Source: Alphaproteobacteria bacterium
Lineage (GTDB): Bacteria > Pseudomonadota > Alphaproteobacteria > Bin95
Assembly (NCBI GenBank): GCA_965205265.1
Contig: CBDBGH010000003.1
Location: 2,688,001 to 2,752,000 of the forward strand
Direction: 5' to 3'
Length of the DNA stretch: 64,000 bases
Shown: piece after piece, positions 4,033 to 64,000 of the stretch
How positions within the stretch are numbered: the first letter of the stretch is position 1
How the letters are laid out: every line of letters starts with the position of its first letter
Translations under genes and position numbers: made by a program
The notes under the pieces: model-generated
What the model was told of the DNA's origin: nothing
The model's input: only the letters and a program-made list of their open reading frames with translations
Databases searched by the model: none

Positions 4033-4098
4033 ACCTATGCTTCGGCGCAAGCATGGCATAAACTGAAGCCTGCCTTGTCCCGTTGCCACGAGGATGCC

Positions 4099-5109
4099 GT
4101 GAGTCGGGCATACGGTCGTTTTTGGCCAAACATCGCCGCTGCCCTGTTCGCAGCCGCCATGCTGTCCGCATGCAGTTCGGACGGCGGCGAGCAATATGTG
4201 GAGCGGTCGGTCGAGGCTCTCTACAACAGCTCGATGGATGCGCTGCTGGCGGGCAATTTCGAGCTCGCCGCCCAGCAGTTCGACGAAGTCGAGCGCCAGC
4301 ATCCCTATTCGGTCTGGGCGACCAAGGCGCAATTGATGGGCGCCTACGCCCATTACCAAGCCGATGAGTATGACGAAGCGATCGCCGCGCTGGAGCGGTA
4401 TATCCAGCTTCATCCGGGCAATCCGGATGTCAGCTATGCCTACTACCTGACGGCGGTTTCCTACTATGAGCAGATTTCGGATGTCGGACGCGATCAGGCC
4501 GTGACCCGCAAGGCCCGCGGGGCGTTGGAAGCGGTCGTGCGGCGCTTCCCCGGCACCGACTATGCGAACGACGCCCGCCTGAAACTCGACCTGACACGGG
4601 ACCACCTGGCCGGAAAGGAAATGAGCGTAGGACGCTTCTATCTCCGCCAGGGCCATTTACTGGCTGCCATAAACCGGTTCCGCATCGTCGTGGAGGAATA
4701 CCAGACCACATCCCATGTGCCCGAAGCCCTGCACCGCCTTGCAGAGGCCTACACCGCCATCGGGCTCGACGAGGAGGCGGTCCGGGTTGCCGCCGTGCTT
4801 CAGCACAACTATCCCGGCGATGAGTGGTATTCGGACAGTTACAACCTGGTCGAAAAGGGCGAAACCGCCCCGCAGGAGGACGCCGAAGACGGCTGGTTCT
4901 CGCGCAACTGGAACGCTTTGCTCGATCCGGCGGCGACGATCGGCGGCGGCGGCGGGCGGGCCGAGGAACTGGCGAAGGAACTGGCCGAAACCAGAGCGGC
5001 CGAGGATGCCGAACTCATGGAGCGCGCCCGGGCGATGGAGCGGGAACGCGGCGGAGGAAAGAGCGGAGCGCCGCCGGCCATTGCGCCTCCGGGAACTCCC
5101 AAGGGATAA
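4099..5109 (+). CDS. bamD: Outer membrane protein assembly factor BamD with C-terminal extension (GTG start inferred; ORF open from 4075)
   Basis: Lipobox LSAC, FDEVERQHPYS.WA, HLAGKEM.VGRFY, HVPEALHRL; lpxC-bamD-recN synteny. Confidence 0.95.
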   Translation: MSRAYGRFWPNIAAALFAAAMLSACSSDGGEQYVERSVEALYNSSMDALLAGNFELAAQQFDEVERQHPYSVWATKAQLMGAYAHYQADEYDEAIAALERYIQLHPGNPDVSYAYYLTAVSYYEQISDVGRDQAVTRKARGALEAVVRRFPGTDYANDARLKLDLTRDHLAGKEMSVGRFYLRQGHLLAAINRFRIVVEEYQTTSHVPEALHRLAEAYTAIGLDEEAVRVAAVLQHNYPGDEWYSDSYNLVEKGETAPQEDAEDGWFSRNWNALLDPAATIGGGGGRAEELAKELAETRAAEDAELMERARAMERERGGGKSGAPPAIAPPGTPKG

Positions 5110-5121
5110 CGCCCGGCCGCC

Positions 5122-9778
<4,657 letters not shown>

Positions 9779-55139: not shown

Positions 55140-56405
55140 ATGGCCGCCACGGAACGGATGAAACTCACCGAGGCGACCATCGCCCGGCTCCGACCCCGCG
55201 AGCGCGAATACACGGTCTGGGACACGCGCGTCGCCGGGCTCGGCATCAGAGTGCGGCCCTCCGGGGGATGCAGCTATGTGCTGCTTCTCGACGCCGGCGG
55301 GCGCACGAAGCGCGTCTCGCTCGGGCGGGTCGGTGTCAAGAGCCTGGAAGAGGTCCGAAGGGAGTGCCATGCCCGCCGGGCAAACCCGGAGCCGGAGAGA
55401 GGGACCGCGCCGGCGTATGCCGTCCCGCTGTTCCGGGACTTCGTCGCCGGGCCGTGGAAGGAGGCGCATTTCGACCGCTTCAAGCCTTCGACGCAGCGGG
55501 CGGCCCGGTATCAGCTGGCGGCGCAACTCCTGCCGGCCTTCGGGGCGAAGGCGCTGGACCGCATCGGCGAGGGCGGCATCAGGCGCTGGTTCGAGCCCTA
55601 CAGCCGCACCGCCCCCGGCAACGCCAATCACGCCCTCGGGCGTCTCAGGCAGATTTTGAACTTCGCCGTCGCCTGCGGCCATATTGAACGCAATCCGGCC
55701 GACGGCATCGCGTTCAACCGGCTGGCGAAGCTCACGCGCTTCCTGTCCCGCGAGGAGATTGCGCGCCTGCACGCCGTCCTAGACGCCCGGACCCGCGAGG
55801 GCGACCGCCAGCAGGCCGACATCATCCGTCTCTTGCTGCTCACCGGATGCCGCCGGGGCGAGATCGTCGGCCTCAGATGGTCGGAGGTCCGCGACGGGGC
55901 ACTAGCGCTCGCCGACGCCAAGACGGGGCCGAGGACAGTTGCCCTCAATAGGCAGGCGAGAGCCATTCTCGACCGGCAGCCGCGCACGGGCAGCGCGTTC
56001 GTGTTTCCCTCGCCGCTCGATCCCGCCCGCCCGCGCGGCCCCGATCTCAGGCTGTGGCATCGTGTGCGCTGCGAAGCCGGCATCGAGGACTGCCGCCTTC
56101 ACGACCTGCGGCACACGATGTCGAGTCATGCCGTGATGAACGGCGTGCCCGTGCCGGTGGTCTCCCGGCTGCTCGGGCATTCCAATGTGCAGATGACGAT
56201 GCGCTATGCCCACCTCGCAGACCGCGACACCGAAGCGGCGGCGGAGCGTGTGGGGGAAGTCATCGACGCGCTCATGAACCAGCAGGGGACAGGAACGTTG
56301 GCGGCCGGCGACCCTACCGCCGCCCTGTCTCCCGCTGGCCGCGATCAATCCGGGACCGAGTCGCCCGGACGAGGCGGCAGCATTCCCCGACGCCGGCACG
56401 GATGA
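55140..56405 (+). CDS. Tyrosine recombinase 2 with N-terminal arm-binding domain
   Basis: WDTRVAGLGIRVRPSG; catalytic TGCRRGE, AKTG, HDLRH, LGH, TMRYAH. Confidence 0.94.
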   Translation: MAATERMKLTEATIARLRPREREYTVWDTRVAGLGIRVRPSGGCSYVLLLDAGGRTKRVSLGRVGVKSLEEVRRECHARRANPEPERGTAPAYAVPLFRDFVAGPWKEAHFDRFKPSTQRAARYQLAAQLLPAFGAKALDRIGEGGIRRWFEPYSRTAPGNANHALGRLRQILNFAVACGHIERNPADGIAFNRLAKLTRFLSREEIARLHAVLDARTREGDRQQADIIRLLLLTGCRRGEIVGLRWSEVRDGALALADAKTGPRTVALNRQARAILDRQPRTGSAFVFPSPLDPARPRGPDLRLWHRVRCEAGIEDCRLHDLRHTMSSHAVMNGVPVPVVSRLLGHSNVQMTMRYAHLADRDTEAAAERVGEVIDALMNQQGTGTLAAGDPTAALSPAGRDQSGTESPGRGGSIPRRRHG

Positions 56406-56918
56406 GCGTAAGCGCTGCATCATTGCCTGTCCCGGTCGCCGTGGGGAGCGTCCCCGCTTTCCCTCGTCTGCCAGTCCACCCTGTGGTTCGCGTCTGCGCC
56501 CCTAGGCCGGATCTTCCCGCCGTTGAGTTGCTGCGTGTTGGCGAGATGTTCCGCTCCCCTAAGGTGTTGACGACGGCACGGTTACTCGTGCCGGTGCCGC
56601 GCTCGTAGGCCGCCCACCTCTCGCCCCAGCGCGCCGAGTCCATATCGAACTTAACCCCCAGCGTGCCAGTGATGTCGACCGACCCGCCGATAAAGCCCTT
56701 CCTAGGGCCCTCCCTCCATTCACCTTCATCCCTCTTCAACCGTACTGGTCAGCCCTCTTGCTCTCACCCTTTTGACTGACCGTGCAAAACACCCTACCAT
56801 TTCTTTAGCCTCGCGCCTCAGCCACCGTTACGACCTTCCACCCCTTCTGTTCTCCTAGCACCCACGAGCACTCCTTTCCTGCTCTTCGCCACCTTCCGCC
56901 TCCAGTGCGAGCACCTCA

Positions 56919-59216
56919 ATGCCCGAGCGAACCTTTGTTGCATTCTCTTCGGCTGATACCGTCCTCGCCGAACTCATTGACACGGCCTGTGAACACGCTC
57001 AAACCTCGAAACGCATTCTTGAGCCTTGGAACCGATTCGACCCCTCTGGTACTCCGATAGATAAAACGGTCTATTCTTGGATTGAAGACGCAGACTCGCT
57101 TATAGCTGACGTCTCAGAGCCCAACGACAACGTCACCTATGAAATCGGCTTGGCCTTGGGCCTGCGGAAACCACTACGACTAATTCGTGCTTCGAATAAA
57201 GCCTTAAAGAACTTGGTATCAGTAGGCCTTCTGCACAATGTTGGACACGACGAATACACCAATACCGCCTCTTTGGCCGCTATACTGAAGAAACCCATCT
57301 CGCCAAACAACTGGCCCAAGTCAAGCCCAAATCGCGAACATCCAGTATATTTTCTTCAACTGACTGGGGACGAAGATATCTCTCGCCGCGTCGCAAGTCA
57401 CATAAAGAAAATTATTAAATTGAAGTACCGGTCCATGAACCCCAATGAAGTGGATCGCCTGACGGCTTCCGAAGCATTCGAGCATATCTCTCAGTCCTTT
57501 GGCATTATTGCAGTTTGGGACAACTCCGAAGCAGGCTCTTCGACACGGCAAAATCAACGCACCTCTTTCGCGATTGGTGTTGCCCGGGGCCTAGACATTC
57601 CCTTTTTGCTTCTTGCCCACAAAGATGACAGGCTTCCACTCGACCTAGACGAAATAGCGACCCGATGGGAGCATATTGCTGGACTATCCTCCATTATGAG
57701 GAGATTTCGCGACGAGATATACGAATACCAGGAAGCCTTTGTTGAAATCAAGCCCAATACCGAGCGATTTCTTGACCAAGTGTATTGTGGAGATCCTGCG
57801 GCAGAAAATGAAGCATCCCAGCTGGAGACATACTTCCTTGAAACGGAGCAATTTCGACTAACATCATCCGGAGATCTGAACATCCTATTGGGGAGAAAGG
57901 GCAGCGGAAAAACAGCCATTTTTCTCCAAACACGAAATAGAACACGCTCAGAAAAATCGAATATAGTTGTTGATTTGCAGCCGGAAGGCTATCAGTTGAT
58001 TCGGTTAAAGGAGTTTGTGCTAGAATATCTTTCTATCGGTGCTCGAAAAGAATTTATCGCCTCTTTCTGGGAATATATCGTATGGCTGGAAATTGCTTAT
58101 AAAATTTTAGAAAAGGATCACCGCCGGGCCCGATATGATTTTGAGTTGATGGAAAGATATAGGCAGTTGGAGAAATTTTACCAAGAGCGGGCGGAAGGAG
58201 AGGGGGACTTTAGTGAACGACTTCAAGCCCTCGTCGAAAGAATTATTACCCGTTATGAAGGCCAAAGCGGATGGCAGGAGGGATCATTGGCGTCATCCCG
58301 CGTGCTGGAAATAGTTTATGGCAAGGAAATTACCCAAATACGAGAGGAGGTTTTGGGATACCTTTCGAGAAAGGGCGTGGTATTCTTTTTGTTTGATAAC
58401 CTGGATCGATTTTGGACACCGCCTTCATTCACTGAGTTGGATGCTGAAATTATCTCGGGGTTAATTGAGTCGCTAAAGGATATACGACGAAGATTTTCGC
58501 GAAAACAGTTAGAGTTTAGCTGGGCAATTTTTCTTCGCAGTGATGTATTCGAGTTCGTCATTGGTGCTATGGCGGACTACGGGAAGCTTAGCGTGGCGAG
58601 TGTGGAATGGAATGACAGAGCCTTATTGGAGCAGCTGTTCAAGAATCGAATATTGAAAGGCTTGCGAGCTGGTAAACGGAGGTGGGGCGAAGTATGGGAA
58701 CAGGTGTCCGTGCAACGGGTGGATGGTAAACGAACGTTGGAGTTTCTAGTCGAATCTTCGCTAATGCGCCCGAGATATCTCATTCGGCTGTTTGAAACCG
58801 CAAGGAGGAGGGCGGTAACGTTAGGTCGCAACACCGTGCAAGAAGAGGATTATCGCTTGGCTTTGGAGGAGCTGGGCTGGCAGGTATTGGAAGATTTTGA
58901 CCGAGAGCTGAAGGATGTGGTTCCCGCCGCGGAGGACTTGATGTTTGATTTGCTTCAGTTGGGGACCGAGTTTTCGTTGAATCGTTTACGCCGAGCAGTC
59001 GAAGCTAGAGCGCGGGCGGGGGATGTGGTCGATATGGTTGTGGACGTGTTGATATGGACAGGCTGTATCGGCGTCAAAAACGGTAGTGGGGTCACTTACA
59101 TTTCCGATTGCGGGTTTAGAAGGGCGTATATTCGATCATTGCTCCGCGACGAGGACGCGCAGGTTATAGTTTTTCATCCCACGTTGGCGGCCGTGATTGG
59201 GGGACCAACGACATAG
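56919..59216 (+). CDS. NDT/TIR-like domain fused to P-loop ATPase (Sll1717-like); candidate defence protein
   Basis: IADVSEPNDNVTYEIGLALGLRKP N-terminal motif, GDPAAENE, GRKGSGKTA Walker A, FFLFDNLD Walker B; much lower GC than flanks. Confidence 0.8.
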   Translation: MPERTFVAFSSADTVLAELIDTACEHAQTSKRILEPWNRFDPSGTPIDKTVYSWIEDADSLIADVSEPNDNVTYEIGLALGLRKPLRLIRASNKALKNLVSVGLLHNVGHDEYTNTASLAAILKKPISPNNWPKSSPNREHPVYFLQLTGDEDISRRVASHIKKIIKLKYRSMNPNEVDRLTASEAFEHISQSFGIIAVWDNSEAGSSTRQNQRTSFAIGVARGLDIPFLLLAHKDDRLPLDLDEIATRWEHIAGLSSIMRRFRDEIYEYQEAFVEIKPNTERFLDQVYCGDPAAENEASQLETYFLETEQFRLTSSGDLNILLGRKGSGKTAIFLQTRNRTRSEKSNIVVDLQPEGYQLIRLKEFVLEYLSIGARKEFIASFWEYIVWLEIAYKILEKDHRRARYDFELMERYRQLEKFYQERAEGEGDFSERLQALVERIITRYEGQSGWQEGSLASSRVLEIVYGKEITQIREEVLGYLSRKGVVFFLFDNLDRFWTPPSFTELDAEIISGLIESLKDIRRRFSRKQLEFSWAIFLRSDVFEFVIGAMADYGKLSVASVEWNDRALLEQLFKNRILKGLRAGKRRWGEVWEQVSVQRVDGKRTLEFLVESSLMRPRYLIRLFETARRRAVTLGRNTVQEEDYRLALEELGWQVLEDFDRELKDVVPAAEDLMFDLLQLGTEFSLNRLRRAVEARARAGDVVDMVVDVLIWTGCIGVKNGSGVTYISDCGFRRAYIRSLLRDEDAQVIVFHPTLAAVIGGPTT

Positions 59217-59773
59217 AGAGAGTTCAAAGGAAGCGGACGGTCCCGCCGCGGGCCAGGGCCCTGGAGGGCCGCGAGCATTCGCTTCACTGAGGGGTCTGCG
59301 GGGCTCGTTCCAGTTCTCCCTTGCGCCGGTTCTGCGCCGGCAGCCATTGCGTCGTGCTTCGCCGTGCTGCGTCCGGCCGGTCGGTGGTCCGGCCAGAGGC
59401 GCAAGAGGGCGGCGAAACGCGCCCGTCCGGCCTTGAGGGCCGGCCGTAGGCGCTTCTCTAGGTCGGGGCAGCATGCCTCCGTCCCGGGATTCGATCGCCG
59501 CTCCGCCCGGTCCACGCCGCGCGTCCCGGTTTCCGCTGTGCCCACCGCCGCCTTCCCCGCCTCCGGTCGCCTCACCATCTTGCGGTGATACGTAGTCCGA
59601 TCGTGTGCTCCGGCGCCGCCGCGCCTGCTTCGGGCCCGGCGGCCTCGCGCTGGTTGGCTTCGAGTGCGAGTGCGAGTTCGAGTGCACCGTAAGCGATGCG
59701 GCAGGGGCACCTTCCGCTCGGTCTCGGGATTTGAGACTCCGCTACGTTCGGGAGGACGTAGAGGAGTTTCTCC

Positions 59774-60163
59774 ATGGAGCGCACTGCGGAGTTTCTCAGC
59801 CCGGTCGAGGTGATCGGTGGAGTGAAGGGTCGCCGTCGCTGGCCGGAAGAGTTGAAGGCGCGGATTGTAGCGGAGACGCTTGAGCCTGGCGCGAGGGTGG
59901 CCTCGGTAGCACGGCGTTACGATCTTCGCCCAAGCCATCTGTCGGACTGGCGTCGCAAGGCGCGGGAGGGTCGCCTGGTTTTGCCTGCAGCGGACGAGGC
60001 AGTGGAGTTTGCGCCGCTGGTGGTCCGGGCTGAAGGGCACGGCGCCGAGGCGAACGGTGGGTGTCTGGAAGTGGTTCTGGACCGGGTTACGGTCCGTCTG
60101 GATGCGGCGGTGCCGGCGGGCCGGCTGGCGGAGATCGTGTCTGCGCTGAATGCGCTGTCATGA
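59774..60163 (+). CDS. tnpA: IS66 accessory protein TnpA
   Basis: RRRWPEELKARIVAETLEPGA.V..VARRY HTH. Confidence 0.9.
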   Translation: MERTAEFLSPVEVIGGVKGRRRWPEELKARIVAETLEPGARVASVARRYDLRPSHLSDWRRKAREGRLVLPAADEAVEFAPLVVRAEGHGAEANGGCLEVVLDRVTVRLDAAVPAGRLAEIVSALNALS

Positions 60164-60513
60164 TCTTCCCGTCGAACCGGGTGCGGATCGTTGTCGCAAC
60201 GAAGCCCGTCGACTTCCGCCGCCAGCACGACGGCCTTGTCGCGCATGTGAAGGGCGCGCTGCGGCGGGACCCGTTCACCGGCACGGTATACGTCTTTCGA
60301 TCGAGGCGAGCTGACAGGCTGAAGCTGGTCTTCTGGGACGGGACCGGGCTGGTGCTGATCTACAAGCGTCTGGAGGACCAGGGCTTTGTATGGCCGGCGA
60401 TCCGCGACGGGGTGATGTCGCTGAGCCATGCGCAGTTCGAGGCCTTGTTCGCGGGCCTGGACTGGCGTCGCGTGCGGGCGCTGTCGGCGCGGCGCCCGGC
60501 TGAGGCGGAGTGA
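60160..60513 (+). CDS. tnpB: IS66 accessory protein TnpB
   Basis: KPVDFRRQHDGL, VFRSRRADRLKLVFWDGTG, YKRLE. Confidence 0.93.
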   Translation: MIFPSNRVRIVVATKPVDFRRQHDGLVAHVKGALRRDPFTGTVYVFRSRRADRLKLVFWDGTGLVLIYKRLEDQGFVWPAIRDGVMSLSHAQFEALFAGLDWRRVRALSARRPAEAE

Positions 60514-60568
60514 CTCAGCCGGTGGATCGGGGCGTCCGGCTCCGCGACACTGTGCTACCAAGCGAGCC

Positions 60569-61787
60569 ATGGCTGCGCTTGCGGAGATCGACCTTGAAAC
60601 GCTGACACCCGAACAGCGGGAAGCGGCGGTGCAGGCGATCATGGCGCTGGAGACGCTTCGCACCGAGAACGAGGTGTTGACGGACCGCAATGAGGCGCAG
60701 TCCGAGCGCATCCGCCGTCTCGAACACCTGGTGCGCGAGCTGCAGCGCGTTATCTACGGGAAAAGGTCGGAGAAGCTGACGGCGGACGAGCGCCAGCTGG
60801 CGTTCGAGGACCTTGTTGCGGCGGCGGAAGAGATCGAGGAAGCGATCACGCCGGCCGATCCGGCGCCGGCCCAATCGCCGAAGCGTCCTCGCCCGGCGCG
60901 CAATCTCGGCCATTTGCCGGACCACCTGGAGCGGATCGAGCAGGTGATCGAGCCGGAGAGCACGCTCTGCCCCTGCGGCTGCGGGGAAATGGCGAAGATC
61001 GGCGAGGATCGCACGGAGCGCCTGGACATCGTGCCGGCGCAGTTGCGGGTGATCGTCACGGTGCGCCCGAAATACGCCTGCCGCCGGTGTGAGGAAGGCG
61101 TGACCCAGGCGCCGGCGCCGGCCCGGCTGATCGAAGGGGCGCTGCCGACCGAAGGCGCTATCGCGCATGTGCTGGTCTCGAAATACGCCGATCATTGTCC
61201 GTTGCACCGTCAGACGCAGATCTATGCCCGCTCAGGCCTCGATCTGGACCGCTCGACGCTGGCCGGCTGGGTCGGCAAGGCCTCGTTCCACCTCAGGCCG
61301 GTGGTTGACCGCCTGGCACGGCACCTGAAACGGTCGTCCAAGCTCTTCATGGATGAGACGCGGGCGCCGGTGCTCGATCCGGGCCGCGGCAGGACGAAGA
61401 CCGGCTGGTTATGGGCGCTGGCCCGCGACGACCGTTCCTGGGGCGGGCCCGATCCACCGGGCGTCGTCTACTTCTACGCCCCCGGGCGCGGCGGCGAACA
61501 TGCGGAGCGCTTCCTTGATGGCTTCGACGGCATCCTGCAGGTCGATGGCTATGCCGGCTACAGCCGGCTGGCCGGACCGAGCCGCAAGGGCGGCGCGCCG
61601 CTGCGGCTGGCCTACTGTTGGGCCCATTGTCGGCGCCGGCTTCGCGAAATCCACGACAGCAGCGGCTCGGAAATCGCAGCCGAGGGCTTACGCCGGATCG
61701 CCGAACTCTACGCCATCGAGGCCGATATACGCGGCAGCCCGCCGGAGCTGCGCCTCGCCGAACGGCAAACGCGCTCCGCGCCCCTGG
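60569..61787 (+). pseudogene. tnpC: IS66 transposase TnpC, truncated by IS21 insertion
   Basis: YGKRSEK, KYADH.PL.RQ, MDET, LQVDGYAGY, CWAHCRR; homology stops at RSAPLV. Confidence 0.88.
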
Positions 61788-61881
61788 TGTTAGCGACGGT
61801 TAGGAAGGGCGTTTATTTGCTGGCGCGGAACGGCCGGTTTGTGCGGCTTGCGAGCAGCGTCGCATGGGTTAGGTGTTGCGT

Positions 61882-62775
61882 TCATCTGATTGGGCGGTCA
61901 TCGGTTTCGAGCGGCTCGCCGTCGCGGTCACGGATGAGCATGTCGTTCCAGTCCTGGTTTTCGAGGGCCGGTCGCATTCGGACGATTCTTGTGTCGTTGT
62001 CTTGCATGCGGCGGGCGGCGTGATCGCCGTATCGTGTAGCGTCCCAGGCACAGAAGATACGGCGCGGGTTCCAGGCCTCGACCCATTTGGGGATTCTGGC
62101 CGTGATGGCGCCGGTGGAGACGACGGCGCATTTGCTGCGTTTTTCCGGGACGAGGTGGAGGGAGAGGATCGACAGGGCGTCGAGGGCGCTGCCGGTGAGG
62201 ATGACGGTGCCGGGCCAGTCGGGCTCCCATGACATCCAGAAGCCGCCGTCTGCGGCCGGCTCCTGCGCTGCGGGGAGGGTCTCTATGCCGACCACCTTGC
62301 TGGCGGCGTTTCGGCGGAGGAACACGGGATTGCCGCGCCGGTCGGCACGGATCAGGCCGAGGCCTCGGCATAGCTCGACGAGCGCGTCGGCGAGGCCGCG
62401 CTGCTCGATGAGGTATTGCCGCAGCGCCGGCCAGCGAGGGTCCTGGCACGAGGGCTCCGCCTCACAGCGACTGTTCGGGAGCCGTGAGTGGCGCGGCAGT
62501 TGGGCGAGGAAGTCGAGGGCTTCGGTCGTTGGGCATCCGAGCGCATGAACCGCCAGCTGGATGGCCCCGGCGCCTCCCTCTCCGCGCAGATGGTCGTAGA
62601 ACATGAAGCGGTTGATGGAGAGGACCGAACCGGCTCGTCTCCAGCGCGCGGCATCGGCGGGATCGCGGCGATAGCCGAGGGCGTGGACCACGTCTTCGAG
62701 GGGGCAGCTTCGCAGCCCCTCGGCCCGCAGGCGGCGATCCCATGGATGCAGATGCTGCACGGCTGGCTCAGGCAT
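61882..62775 (-). CDS. DUF3991 + degenerate Toprim domain protein
   Basis: [42 protein letters not shown]; start overlaps istB stop. Confidence 0.72.
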
Positions 62776-63553
62776 CCCCCGTGTCTTGCGCCGTGCTCTT
62801 GCCCGCTCCTTTTGCCGATCGCCGCCGGCGGCGATCGGCGCTGCGCTGCTTCTGGCGTTCCTCGGCCTCCTTGCGGCGGTATGAGTCGCCGTCGATGGCG
62901 AGGATCTCGGCATTGTGGACGAGCCGGTCGACAAGGGCCACGAGGCAGGCGGCGTTGGGGAAGGCCTCGCTCCACTCGGCGAAGGGGCGGTTTGTGGTGA
63001 TGATGGTGGAGCGCTGCTGGCTGCGGCTTGAGACGATATTGAACAGCAGGTCGGCATGACGGTTGGAGTAGGAGAGATATCCGACTTCGTCGATGACCAG
63101 GAGGTGCTGGCGGGCGTAGAAGCGCAGCCTGCGCTGGAGCATTGTGTCGGAGTCGATGGCGGCGAGCTCGCCGAGCAGGCTGGCGGCGGTTGCGAAGCGC
63201 ACGGTGTGGCCTTCGAGGACGGCGCGGTGTGCGATATTGGCGGCGATTGTGGACTTGCCGACGCCGTTGGGGCCGATGAGGACGACATTGGCGCCCTCGC
63301 GGAGGAAGTTGAGGGTCATGAGGTCCTCGACGGCCATGCGGTCGCATCGCCTTGGCCAGTCCCAGTCGAAGTCGGCGAGCGGCTTGAACTGTCCGAGGCG
63401 GGCGGCGGTGAGGCGTCGCCTGAGGCTTCGGCTTCGCCTCTCTTCCTCTTCCCATGCGATCAGGGGCGGGAGCCAGTCGCGCTCCGCAACCTCGCTCCAG
63501 TGGGCGAGGAGGCCGTGCAGTCCGAGCGCCGTGGCGCGGTCCTTGAGGGTCAT
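62768..63553 (-). CDS. istB: IS21 helper ATPase IstB
   Basis: [43 protein letters not shown]. Confidence 0.93.
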
Positions 63554-64000
63554 TCTTCGCTGTCCTCCTCGTGGTGGCTTGCGAGCCCGTCGTATCCGCC
63601 GAGGTCGTGATCGCGGACCGCGATATCGCGCAGTCTTGGATCGCCGGGCAGGTCGATGGGGATGGGTGGTGGCTCGTTGCGCTGTTCGCGCCGCCGGTTC
63701 AGGCTGAAGCGCACCGCATTGGGATGGGGGACGCCGCGCTCAAGGGCTTCATCGATGGCGGCTTCGAGTTCGACGGCTCCGTAGTCGTCGAGCAGGCGCA
63801 GCAGGGAGGCGACGGTTGTGCCGATATTGCCGCCGCGCCTGGCGGTCTCGGCAAGCAGGCGCTCGCTGTCGGGGGCGGCCTGGAGAAGGCGGCTCTGCCC
63901 GCGCAGGCGGTGGGCGTGACGTTTGAGCCTGACCAGCTCCTCGATGTGCTCGGGGGTCTCGATGCGGGCCGCCTTGTCGAAGCTGCGCGGATGACGGGCG
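63550..64000 (-). CDS. istA: IS21 transposase IstA, C-terminal part (partial)
   Basis: Hand translation ARHPRSFDK..IE.PEHI...LLRLLDDYG..EL.AAI.EAL..GVPHPNAVR...HDLGGYD; stop overlaps istB start. Confidence 0.88.
   Translation of the reverse strand, partial: ARHPRSFDKAARIETPEHIEELVRLKRHAHRLRGQSRLLQAAPDSERLLAETARRGGNIGTTVASLLRLLDDYGAVELEAAIDEALERGVPHPNAVRFSLNRRREQRNEPPPIPIDLPGDPRLRDIAVRDHDLGGYDGLASHHEEDSEE

Follow-up and report, generated by a model that had tools for sequence, protein, structure and literature searches.

Why would an insertion sequence (IS) of the IS21 family carry a gene for a primase-like protein directly behind the gene of its helper ATPase, and what could such a protein do once its active site has been lost? 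Canonical IS21-family elements (e.g., IS21 and IS5376) encode istA and istB only, within approximately 2-2.7 kb. The question is raised by the right-hand end of a 64,000-nt stretch of contig CBDBGH010000003.1 from an Alphaproteobacteria bacterium (G000:C3:2688001-2752000), hereafter the window, in which an IS21-family element begins at position 61788 and continues past the window's end. Its genes are co-oriented in the order orf0, istA, istB, and orf3, with a spacing of 1 nt followed by overlaps of 4 and 8 nt, and orf3 encodes a primase-like protein without the Glu and the second Asp of the primase active site. The reading favored here, to which a probability of roughly 0.5 is given as a whole, is that this dead primase-like protein serves as a non-catalytic, DNA-binding accessory subunit in an IS21 element. 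The features concerned are listed below in window coordinates; L011 coordinates are counted along the element, in the full 4086-bp unit that was fetched.

61788-65873, genes on the minus strand: IS21-family element, 4086 bp, from aligned genome copies; the window holds its right-hand ~2.2 kb (61788-64000)
61783..61787, no strand: left target-site duplication CCTGG, from the flanks of the window copy; the right copy is at 65874-65878, beyond the window
61788..61881, minus strand: right terminus of the IS, 94 bp, 3' of orf3, beginning with TGT, from the copy boundaries
61805-61825: inverted-repeat core within the right terminus, arms of 21 nt, 90% complementary to its partner at L011 4049-4069
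61882..62775, minus strand: orf3, 298 codons including the stop, 297 amino acids (a.a.), primase-like, DUF3991
62768..63553, minus strand: istB, 261-a.a. AAA+ helper ATPase, Pfam IstB_IS21 (PF01695) at 6.5e-57
63550..64000, minus strand: C-terminal 149 codons of istA, the gene continuing to 65055 beyond the window; 501 a.a. in whole, with a 4-nt overlap with the istB start
65057-65491 (extrapolated; L011 3270-3704), minus strand: orf0, 144-a.a. Cys-rich basic protein
65492-65873 (extrapolated), past the window end: left terminus of the IS, 382 bp, non-coding, containing a perfect 16-nt hairpin as well as the inverted repeat
60428..61787, plus strand: 5' part of an IS66-family tnpC split by the insertion, Pfam DDE_Tnp_IS66 (profile positions 3-210 of 284)

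According to its core proteins, the element belongs to the IS21 family: IstA matches the NCBIfam model of IS21 family transposases (NF033546) at 249.7 bits (cut-off 160) as well as Pfam rve and Mu-transpos_C_2, and IstB, encoded directly after IstA, matches the IS21_help_AAA model (NF038214) at 212.2 bits (cut-off 200). Like canonical IS21, the element has an istA-istB overlap, imperfect repeats that start with TGT, short target duplications, and an arrangement resembling replicon fusion. Unlike canonical IS21, it is 4086 bp long and departs from the two-gene form, as a Cys-rich orf0 upstream and a primase-like orf3 downstream also lie within the repeats. It is an IS21-family element by core genes and ends, yet it has two conserved extra genes, one of which encodes a primase-derived pseudoenzyme. 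A first-pass annotation, made from the sequence of the window, had described a three-gene IS21 element with a coupled orf3; the coupling stands, and the gene count is to be corrected for orf0, whose stop codon lies 1 nt ahead of the istA ATG.

The ends of the element were read from its other copies. With the stretch 61700-64000 as query, 16 places in the same genome match at 100% identity, and most of the matches start at window positions 61787-61789. Twelve copies are uninterrupted, 99.9-100% identical, and 4086 bp long (one is 4085 bp). All of these start with TGTTAGCGACGG and finish with ACCGACA, giving TGT...ACA termini, and their terminal inverted repeats are imperfect, with a 21-nt core (L011 18-38 against 4049-4069) that is 90% complementary. 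Perfect direct repeats of 5-7 bp flank 11 of 14 full-length copies. On both sides of the window copy the repeat is CCTGG, as the first-pass annotation had predicted for the bases before 61788. The IS66-family tnpC at the insertion site matches only part of its profile and then runs into unrelated sequence, so it was cut by the insertion, and IS66 sequence picks up again immediately beyond the element (query 4175-4591 matches other IS66 copies). Given the copy boundaries and this resumption, orf3 is part of the mobile unit, whose right end is 94 bp away, and the other end, located at 65873, places it within the inverted repeats. The earlier placement of orf3 inside the IS terminus is thereby borne out, as is its 8-nt overlap with the istB stop if the ATG at 62775 is used; homologs mostly start about 5 codons later. 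The element is an active, multi-copy 4086-bp IS21-family insertion sequence.

The junction between istB and orf3 is tight throughout: in each of the 16 variants compared, the two genes either overlap or are 0-12 nt apart. A metatranscriptome contig of 1103 nt contains all of orf3 together with 188 nt of istB at ~91% identity. This contig fits co-transcription without proving it, because DNA can occur in such libraries; the RNA data are contigs from one metatranscriptome and show presence in an RNA library rather than transcription.

Orf3 matches Pfam DUF3991 (PF13154) at 27.9 bits (gathering cut-off 24.5) over residues 120-165. The window protein has no Pfam Toprim match at E<=0.01, and other members of its family match Toprim_2 and Toprim_3. 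An AlphaFold model built on an alignment of 31 family members (predicted local distance difference test score, pLDDT, 80; predicted template modeling score, pTM, 0.75) was compared to known structures with Foldseek. The best match is 2au3, the zinc-binding and polymerase domains of the Aquifex primase (E-value 1.8e-6), and catalytic cores of DnaG from several bacteria and T7 gp4 (5w33, 1.1e-4; 1dde, 1.5e-4; 1nui, 2.3e-4) as well as human Twinkle (7t8b) are also matched, while the isolated zinc-binding domain 1d0q is matched weakly (E-value 0.13). A sequence profile of the family gave nothing at E<=1 against PDB sequences; fold comparison alone gave matches. The matches to DnaG identify DUF3991 as the N-terminal subdomain of the primase polymerase domain, followed by the Toprim fold. 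By this predicted fold, Orf3 is a homolog of the DnaG/T7-gp4-type primases and belongs to the plasmid-borne DUF3991/Toprim group. Of the two domains named at first pass, DUF3991 is thus recognized in the window protein itself, and Toprim by fold and by family.

Like DnaG, T7 gp4, and Twinkle, Orf3 has a zinc-binding-domain-like region, the polymerase N-subdomain (DUF3991), and Toprim, in this order. Unlike them, it is transposon-encoded and has no helicase or helicase-binding domain, no zinc cluster, no catalytic Glu, and no second Asp. Residues 1-95 contain no Cys cluster, and only H62 and H77 are invariant there, with C81 nearly so; the polymerase-domain fold with its Toprim subdomain is present, and a CHC2 zinc-binding domain is not. 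The N-terminus had been described at first pass as a Cys-poor version of the zinc finger of DnaG. It is Cys-poor indeed, although not through degeneration of the IS copy, because Glu-bearing relatives are Cys-poor as well, which makes this a trait of the whole DUF3991 group. The C-terminus ends in a conserved acidic tail, ETDDRPI. Metazoan Twinkle is a comparable case: it retains a primase fold from which the zinc ligands and key metal ligands have gone, and is not known to have primase activity.

Where relatives of Orf3 have the Toprim motif ESA(I/L)DA(L/I)S, the window protein has TGSALDALS, and at the metal motif, D-x-D-x-x-G-D in those relatives, it has DATRYGD. Alignment with these relatives sets G195 against the Glu of ESAIDALS and D245-A-T247 against DxD, in agreement with the earlier claim that the catalytic Glu is Gly and that DxD is DAT, so the conserved Glu and DxD of DnaG-type primases are lacking in the window protein. 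The loss is common to the family. Among 98 members, counted wherever a member covers the position, the Glu is absent in 92 of 93 (K in 40, G in 22, A in 19, D in 5, N in 4, T and R in 1 each), the sole bearer being an outlier of 38% identity (P0095). The second Asp of DxD is absent in 90 of 91, most of which have Thr there. On the other hand, the 12 stand-alone proteins closest to the family without belonging to it (P0219 to P0236, 35-43% identity) all keep both Glu and DxD, and three plasmid relatives keep the Glu (3/3) and mostly DxD (2/3). Such a variety of residues at the former Glu position is typical of a metal site released from constraint. That the element is built in this way, and that the active site of Orf3 is dead, can be regarded as close to certain.

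Orf3 might nevertheless still be an enzyme, either a primase or a nuclease, with a non-canonical active site. Several acidic residues speak for this: D199 is invariant in the family, the first Asp of the metal motif (D245) is retained in 76 of 91 members, and a DWND motif is intact in 56 of 86. The rest of the pattern speaks against it: no single residue has replaced the Glu, the second Asp is mostly Thr, and the first Asp (15/91) as well as D275 are replaced in several members. An active Orf3 is therefore quite improbable.

The orf3 family consists of 98 clusters at E<=0.001, mostly of 280-311 a.a., several of which are on contigs of ~4 kb, the size of the element. In a synteny scan of one genome per species, 72 orf3 loci were found in other genomes, and istB (counted at >=60% identity) lies directly upstream on the same strand at 63 of them. 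All four genes are colinear at 55 loci, which come from 15 assemblies by a hand count of accession prefixes; 4 more assemblies have istB-orf3 on contigs that are too short for the other genes. The other 9 loci, where no istB adjoins orf3, are fragmentary, lie at a contig end, or are interrupted by an insertion. The loci are labeled as metagenome-assembled genomes of Alphaproteobacteria, Defluviicoccus, Dehalococcoidia/Chloroflexota, Gemmatimonadota, and Pseudomonadales. Five of these genomes have 23, 24, 11, 21, and 2 matches to the primase-like gene, and the lineage is highly proliferative, with 11-24 matches per genome in four of them and the 16 places in the window's own genome. The istA-istB-DUF3991 order, which the first-pass annotation had proposed to look for elsewhere, is thus not a one-off, and it travels with a catalytic loss that is itself conserved.

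A decaying gene would fit poorly with the substitution pattern. The ratio of nonsynonymous to synonymous substitution rates (dN/dS; Nei-Gojobori, NG86) was pooled over 6 disjoint pairs of variants with a bootstrap 95% interval, and is 0.51 (0.44-0.60) for orf3, 0.37 for orf0, 0.32 for istA, and 0.23 for istB; GC-driven codon bias has probably raised these absolute values, and the four genes were measured alike. Within orf3, the ratio is 1.3 in the linker at residues 96-113, 0.45-0.55 in the three folded parts, and 0.30 in the C-terminal tail. An alignment of 31 sequences, the most distant at 38% identity, has 42 invariant columns, and its insertions and deletions are in frame and confined to linkers. 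Judging from these ratios, orf3 is kept under purifying selection in every lineage examined, which settles the earlier question of neutral decay. The notion that orf3 is what remains of a decaying gene, with a frame that stays open by chance at high GC content, draws on the long chance open reading frames (ORFs) that this GC-rich DNA yields in all frames, and on orf3 having the highest dN/dS of the four genes. It is hardly credible in view of an upper limit of 0.60, folded domains constrained around a neutral linker, the invariant columns, and a confident fold prediction.

Where did the gene come from? A full profile search gave 2693 relatives at E<=0.001. Best matches among PLSDB plasmids are 24-29% identical to Orf3 and are either C-terminal parts of MobV relaxases or proteins annotated "DUF3991 and TOPRIM" near conjugation genes. 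Like Orf3, these plasmid proteins and MobV fusions align over their full length, have three domains, and have a Cys-poor N-domain; unlike Orf3, they keep the Glu and mostly DxD, and are set among conjugation and mobilization genes rather than behind istB. Metagenome relatives likewise adjoin relaxases, coupling proteins, and ParA/ParB, and in single cases an AAA_22 ATPase and a tyrosine recombinase. The AAA_22 case (L102:267-1951) has a Glu-bearing primase-like gene directly after, and overlapping, the ATPase gene at the start of a contig, and may be another transposase-helper context. One published report has the DUF3991 label on a plasmid gene that is induced with transfer genes.

A second group of IS21-like elements also has a primase-like gene. 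Metagenome contigs were scanned with an alignment of Glu-bearing relatives, with the proteins of one locus (L136) as queries for neighbors; since one of the scan patterns was ESA.DALS, the scan is biased towards Glu-bearing proteins. Among the 80 loci obtained, istB lies directly upstream of the Glu-bearing homolog at 63, istA is also present at 50, and the primase-like gene stands alone at 17. At 34 loci there is a string of five genes that encode a small Cys-containing zinc-finger protein, a ParB-like protein, IstA, IstB, and the primase-like protein, and many contigs of this clade are ~5 kb long. Loci with the five-gene element include L111, L114, L117, L119, L124, L126, L127, and L136. All five genes lie between inverted repeats in L119 (50 nt, 96% complementary; element of ~4.99 kb) and in L127 (52 nt, 87% complementary; element of ~4.97 kb), and both pairs of repeats contain repeated sub-sites. 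For L136, the ParB-like protein matches HTH_ParB and KorB and the primase-like protein matches DUF3991, Toprim_2, and Toprim, while IstA (117.5 bits; cut-off 160) and IstB (188.7 bits; cut-off 200) fall below the NCBI cut-offs for IS21. Identity to the window's IstA and IstB is 25-34% in this clade.

Like the window element, the five-gene elements have the primase-like gene directly after istB and inside the repeats, and a small Cys-containing protein at the head. Unlike the window element, they have a ParB-like gene, their primase-like protein has an intact Glu and DxD, and their head protein shows no detectable homology to Orf0. Homology between Orf0 and that head protein was considered and found to be unsupported (hhalign probability 0.4%, E-value 0.15). 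As this distant clade has a gene that looks catalytically intact, such IS-borne genes may have an enzymatic role elsewhere.

The two IS clades do not group together in a maximum-likelihood tree of 57 proteins (quick search, midpoint root, with Shimodaira-Hasegawa-like approximate likelihood ratio test support only). The IS clade without Glu is a single group (support 100) on a long stem (0.61), nested (support 95) among the Glu-bearing proteins P0219, P0220, and P0223. The five-gene clade is separate (support 99) and closer to plasmid proteins, and sequences from plasmid or integrase contexts lie between the two. The tree favors, without proving it, the separate capture of a plasmid-type primase by each of the two IS21-like lineages. 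The Glu-bearing relatives of the P0219 type number at least 600 clusters in the protein search, many on contigs of 4-6 kb; none was seen in a scan of viral contigs, the 400 sampled genomes of the class have only the own genome's copies without Glu, and the five genomes with the IS have copies without Glu and no Glu-bearing relative. In addition, a related element in genome G159 (L100, G159:C1:2544000-2554000, positions 4444-7156) encodes an Orf0-like zinc-finger protein of 149 a.a., IstA, and IstB without a primase-like gene; identities to the window's proteins are 41% for Orf0 (N-terminal part), 55% for IstA, and 62% for IstB. Given this element and the far larger number of relatives of orf0, orf3 looks like an addition to an IS21 lineage of the orf0 type.

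Such an addition could be cargo that has nothing to do with transposition, for instance a dominant-negative primase that hinders plasmid or phage replication and is carried between istB and the right end. The related three-gene element without orf3, the kinship of Orf3 with plasmid and conjugation proteins (including C-terminal fusions to MobV relaxases), and its dN/dS being the highest of the four genes would all suit a passenger, and PMC11208146 describes a core IS21 reaction that needs IstA and IstB only. A passenger is less readily reconciled with a primase-like gene that follows istB directly, and is tightly coupled to it, in two IS21 lineages so far apart (25-34% identity in IstA and IstB), or with a position and coupling that are kept at 63 of 72 loci in several phyla (by database labels); moreover, the element carries no other cargo. 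Cargo is a possible account of orf3, and a doubtful one.

The insertion sites bear on a further possibility, namely that Orf3 selects targets by recognizing replication forks, lagging-strand gaps, or conjugating DNA and recruits IstB, as TnsE and TniQ do with TnsC. Like Tn7-like elements and Mu, the window element has additional putative DNA-binding proteins of its own besides a transposase and an AAA+ matchmaker, and here the added protein is encoded beside the ATPase gene of a DDE transposase system; primase folds such as those of DnaG and T7 gp4 are also generally known to bind single-stranded templates. Unlike Tn7-like elements, it shows no Pfam or NCBIfam homology to TnsD, TniQ, TnsE, or TnsA, and no bias of orientation: by a hand count from strands and GC skew, 8 copies are co-directional with replication and 9 are head-on, unlike the bias of TnsE, in a small sample (n = 17) where a symmetric IS21 transpososome might erase an orientation signal. 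The target DNA is single-copy chromosomal sequence at 10 of 14 insertions, flanks are repeated at 3 of 14, and one more has a two-copy right flank, and a preference for other mobile elements as targets was sought in the flanks of these 14 insertions and not seen; the duplications have no clear motif apart from GC-rich pentamers. A role in target selection is consequently unlikely.

The preferred reading, a non-catalytic accessory factor of IstA/IstB transposition, stands at even odds or slightly less. According to PMC11208146, IstB bends target DNA and recruits and activates IstA, and its closest relative is the helicase loader DnaC. Next to such a protein, a DnaG-like partner is a suggestive pairing. 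Orf3 would no longer make primers, and would keep the template-binding part of the primase fold, with single-stranded or branched DNA as its most plausible ligand. IstA would join the 3' ends of the element to the target bent by IstB, leaving gaps of 5-7 nt, and replicon fusions would leave fork-like branches besides. Orf3 could then bind these gaps or branches and hand them over to host repair or replication, or it could aid the release of the IstA-IstB complex. This specific step, the binding of structures that follow strand transfer and their passage to the host or the release of the complex, is proposed only tentatively. In the five-gene clade, the intact enzyme might lay the primer itself, with the window lineage retaining only a binding or adaptor role.

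Several observations weigh against an accessory role of this kind. According to PMC11208146, canonical IS21 requires no protein other than IstA and IstB for integration in vitro, and the G159 element indicates that the core machinery does not need orf3. The gene is also the least constrained of the four (dN/dS 0.51). The separation of the two clades in the tree leaves an ancestral, IS-borne active primase unsupported as a step, as the gene may have been captured independently. The function of Orf3 and its contacts with partners are, moreover, inferred from sequence and fold. A complex prediction for IstB and Orf3 with family alignments scored 0.00 in two runs, which bears neither way.

A still wider proposal can be entertained with reserve: IS21-like transposons may have recruited a plasmid-type primase that couples strand transfer to priming, which would amount to self-primed gap repair or replicative transposition, and the version in the window lineage may have become a pseudoenzyme that acts, together with Orf0, as an adaptor for DNA structures. 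Mu couples strand transfer to the restart of host replication. IS21 is a structural model for the activation of DDE transposases by AAA+ proteins and is described as a two-protein system, and the elements described here hint at an unstudied link between IS21-type transposition and DNA priming. If the added proteins do act in transposition, they would provide a handle on how the strand-transfer product passes to repair or replication. The pair formed by an active-looking and a dead clade is also a natural experiment on the change from enzyme to pseudoenzyme inside a mobile element. A full-text literature search, covering article text outside supplements and ISfinder, gave no described IS21 element with DUF3991 or an IstB-Toprim pairing; papers retrieved for IS21, primase, and IstA together were unrelated by title and abstract, and wider searches likewise gave no such element.

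Orf0, the other added protein, has 9 invariant Cys, invariant His, and a strongly basic, helical middle in its family alignment. Its start was placed at MRNAARLF because stop codons lie upstream of this point in two variants. Pfam and NCBIfam have no family that it matches, the structure model is of low quality (pLDDT 60.7) and has no significant Foldseek match (the best being the YacG zinc finger at an E-value of 1.9), and in the ESM Atlas it falls in unnamed clusters only. The protein collection contains at least 616 relatives; among 400 genomes of the phylum scanned with an Orf0 profile, matches came from just two besides the window's own, a sample that says little about the true range. Upstream of orf0, the left non-coding end has a perfect 16-nt inverted repeat with a 25-nt loop (L011 3934-3990; 65721-65777), a hairpin that could be a terminator of read-through or a protein-binding site.

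The copies of the element show some further arrangements. Two copies in the same orientation, 437 kb apart (C3:4904715 and 5341828), have reciprocally swapped repeats, CCCGG on the outside and ACCGA on the inside, and are two of the three full-length copies without a direct repeat of their own; this is consistent with replicon fusion or with recombination between two copies. Besides the uninterrupted copies, two are split at position 83-85 by a 1051-bp IS630-family element, and several others are truncated. This interrupted variant occurs twice, with the IS630-family element between the IS right end and the orf3 stop, each time with a different target duplication, and the composite seems to be mobile as one unit. 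The nested IS630-family element (G000:C3:3728904-3729954 and 4998892-4999942) has 7 full copies genome-wide. The region at 4.67-5.35 Mb, over which cumulative GC skew climbs unusually steeply, contains a cluster of 10 of the 17 larger copies.

The target of the window copy is an IS66-family element at 59774-61787 with tnpA, tnpB, and tnpC frames. The 89 bp of IS66 sequence at the junction recur at 5 other places at 100% identity and at roughly a dozen with 87-88%; matches of this kind are also obtained with the sequence that follows the element. Further upstream, the window has a low-GC island at 56500-59300 (43-54%, against ~69% around it), which encodes a 765-a.a. protein whose N-terminus scores 28.6 bits against the Pfam cut-off of 28.8 for nucleoside 2-deoxyribosyltransferase. 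The adjoining ORF of 421 a.a. (55140-56405) is tyrosine recombinase-like by eye, with no family search behind this assignment, and the gene for the 765-a.a. protein may be an acquired defense-type gene.

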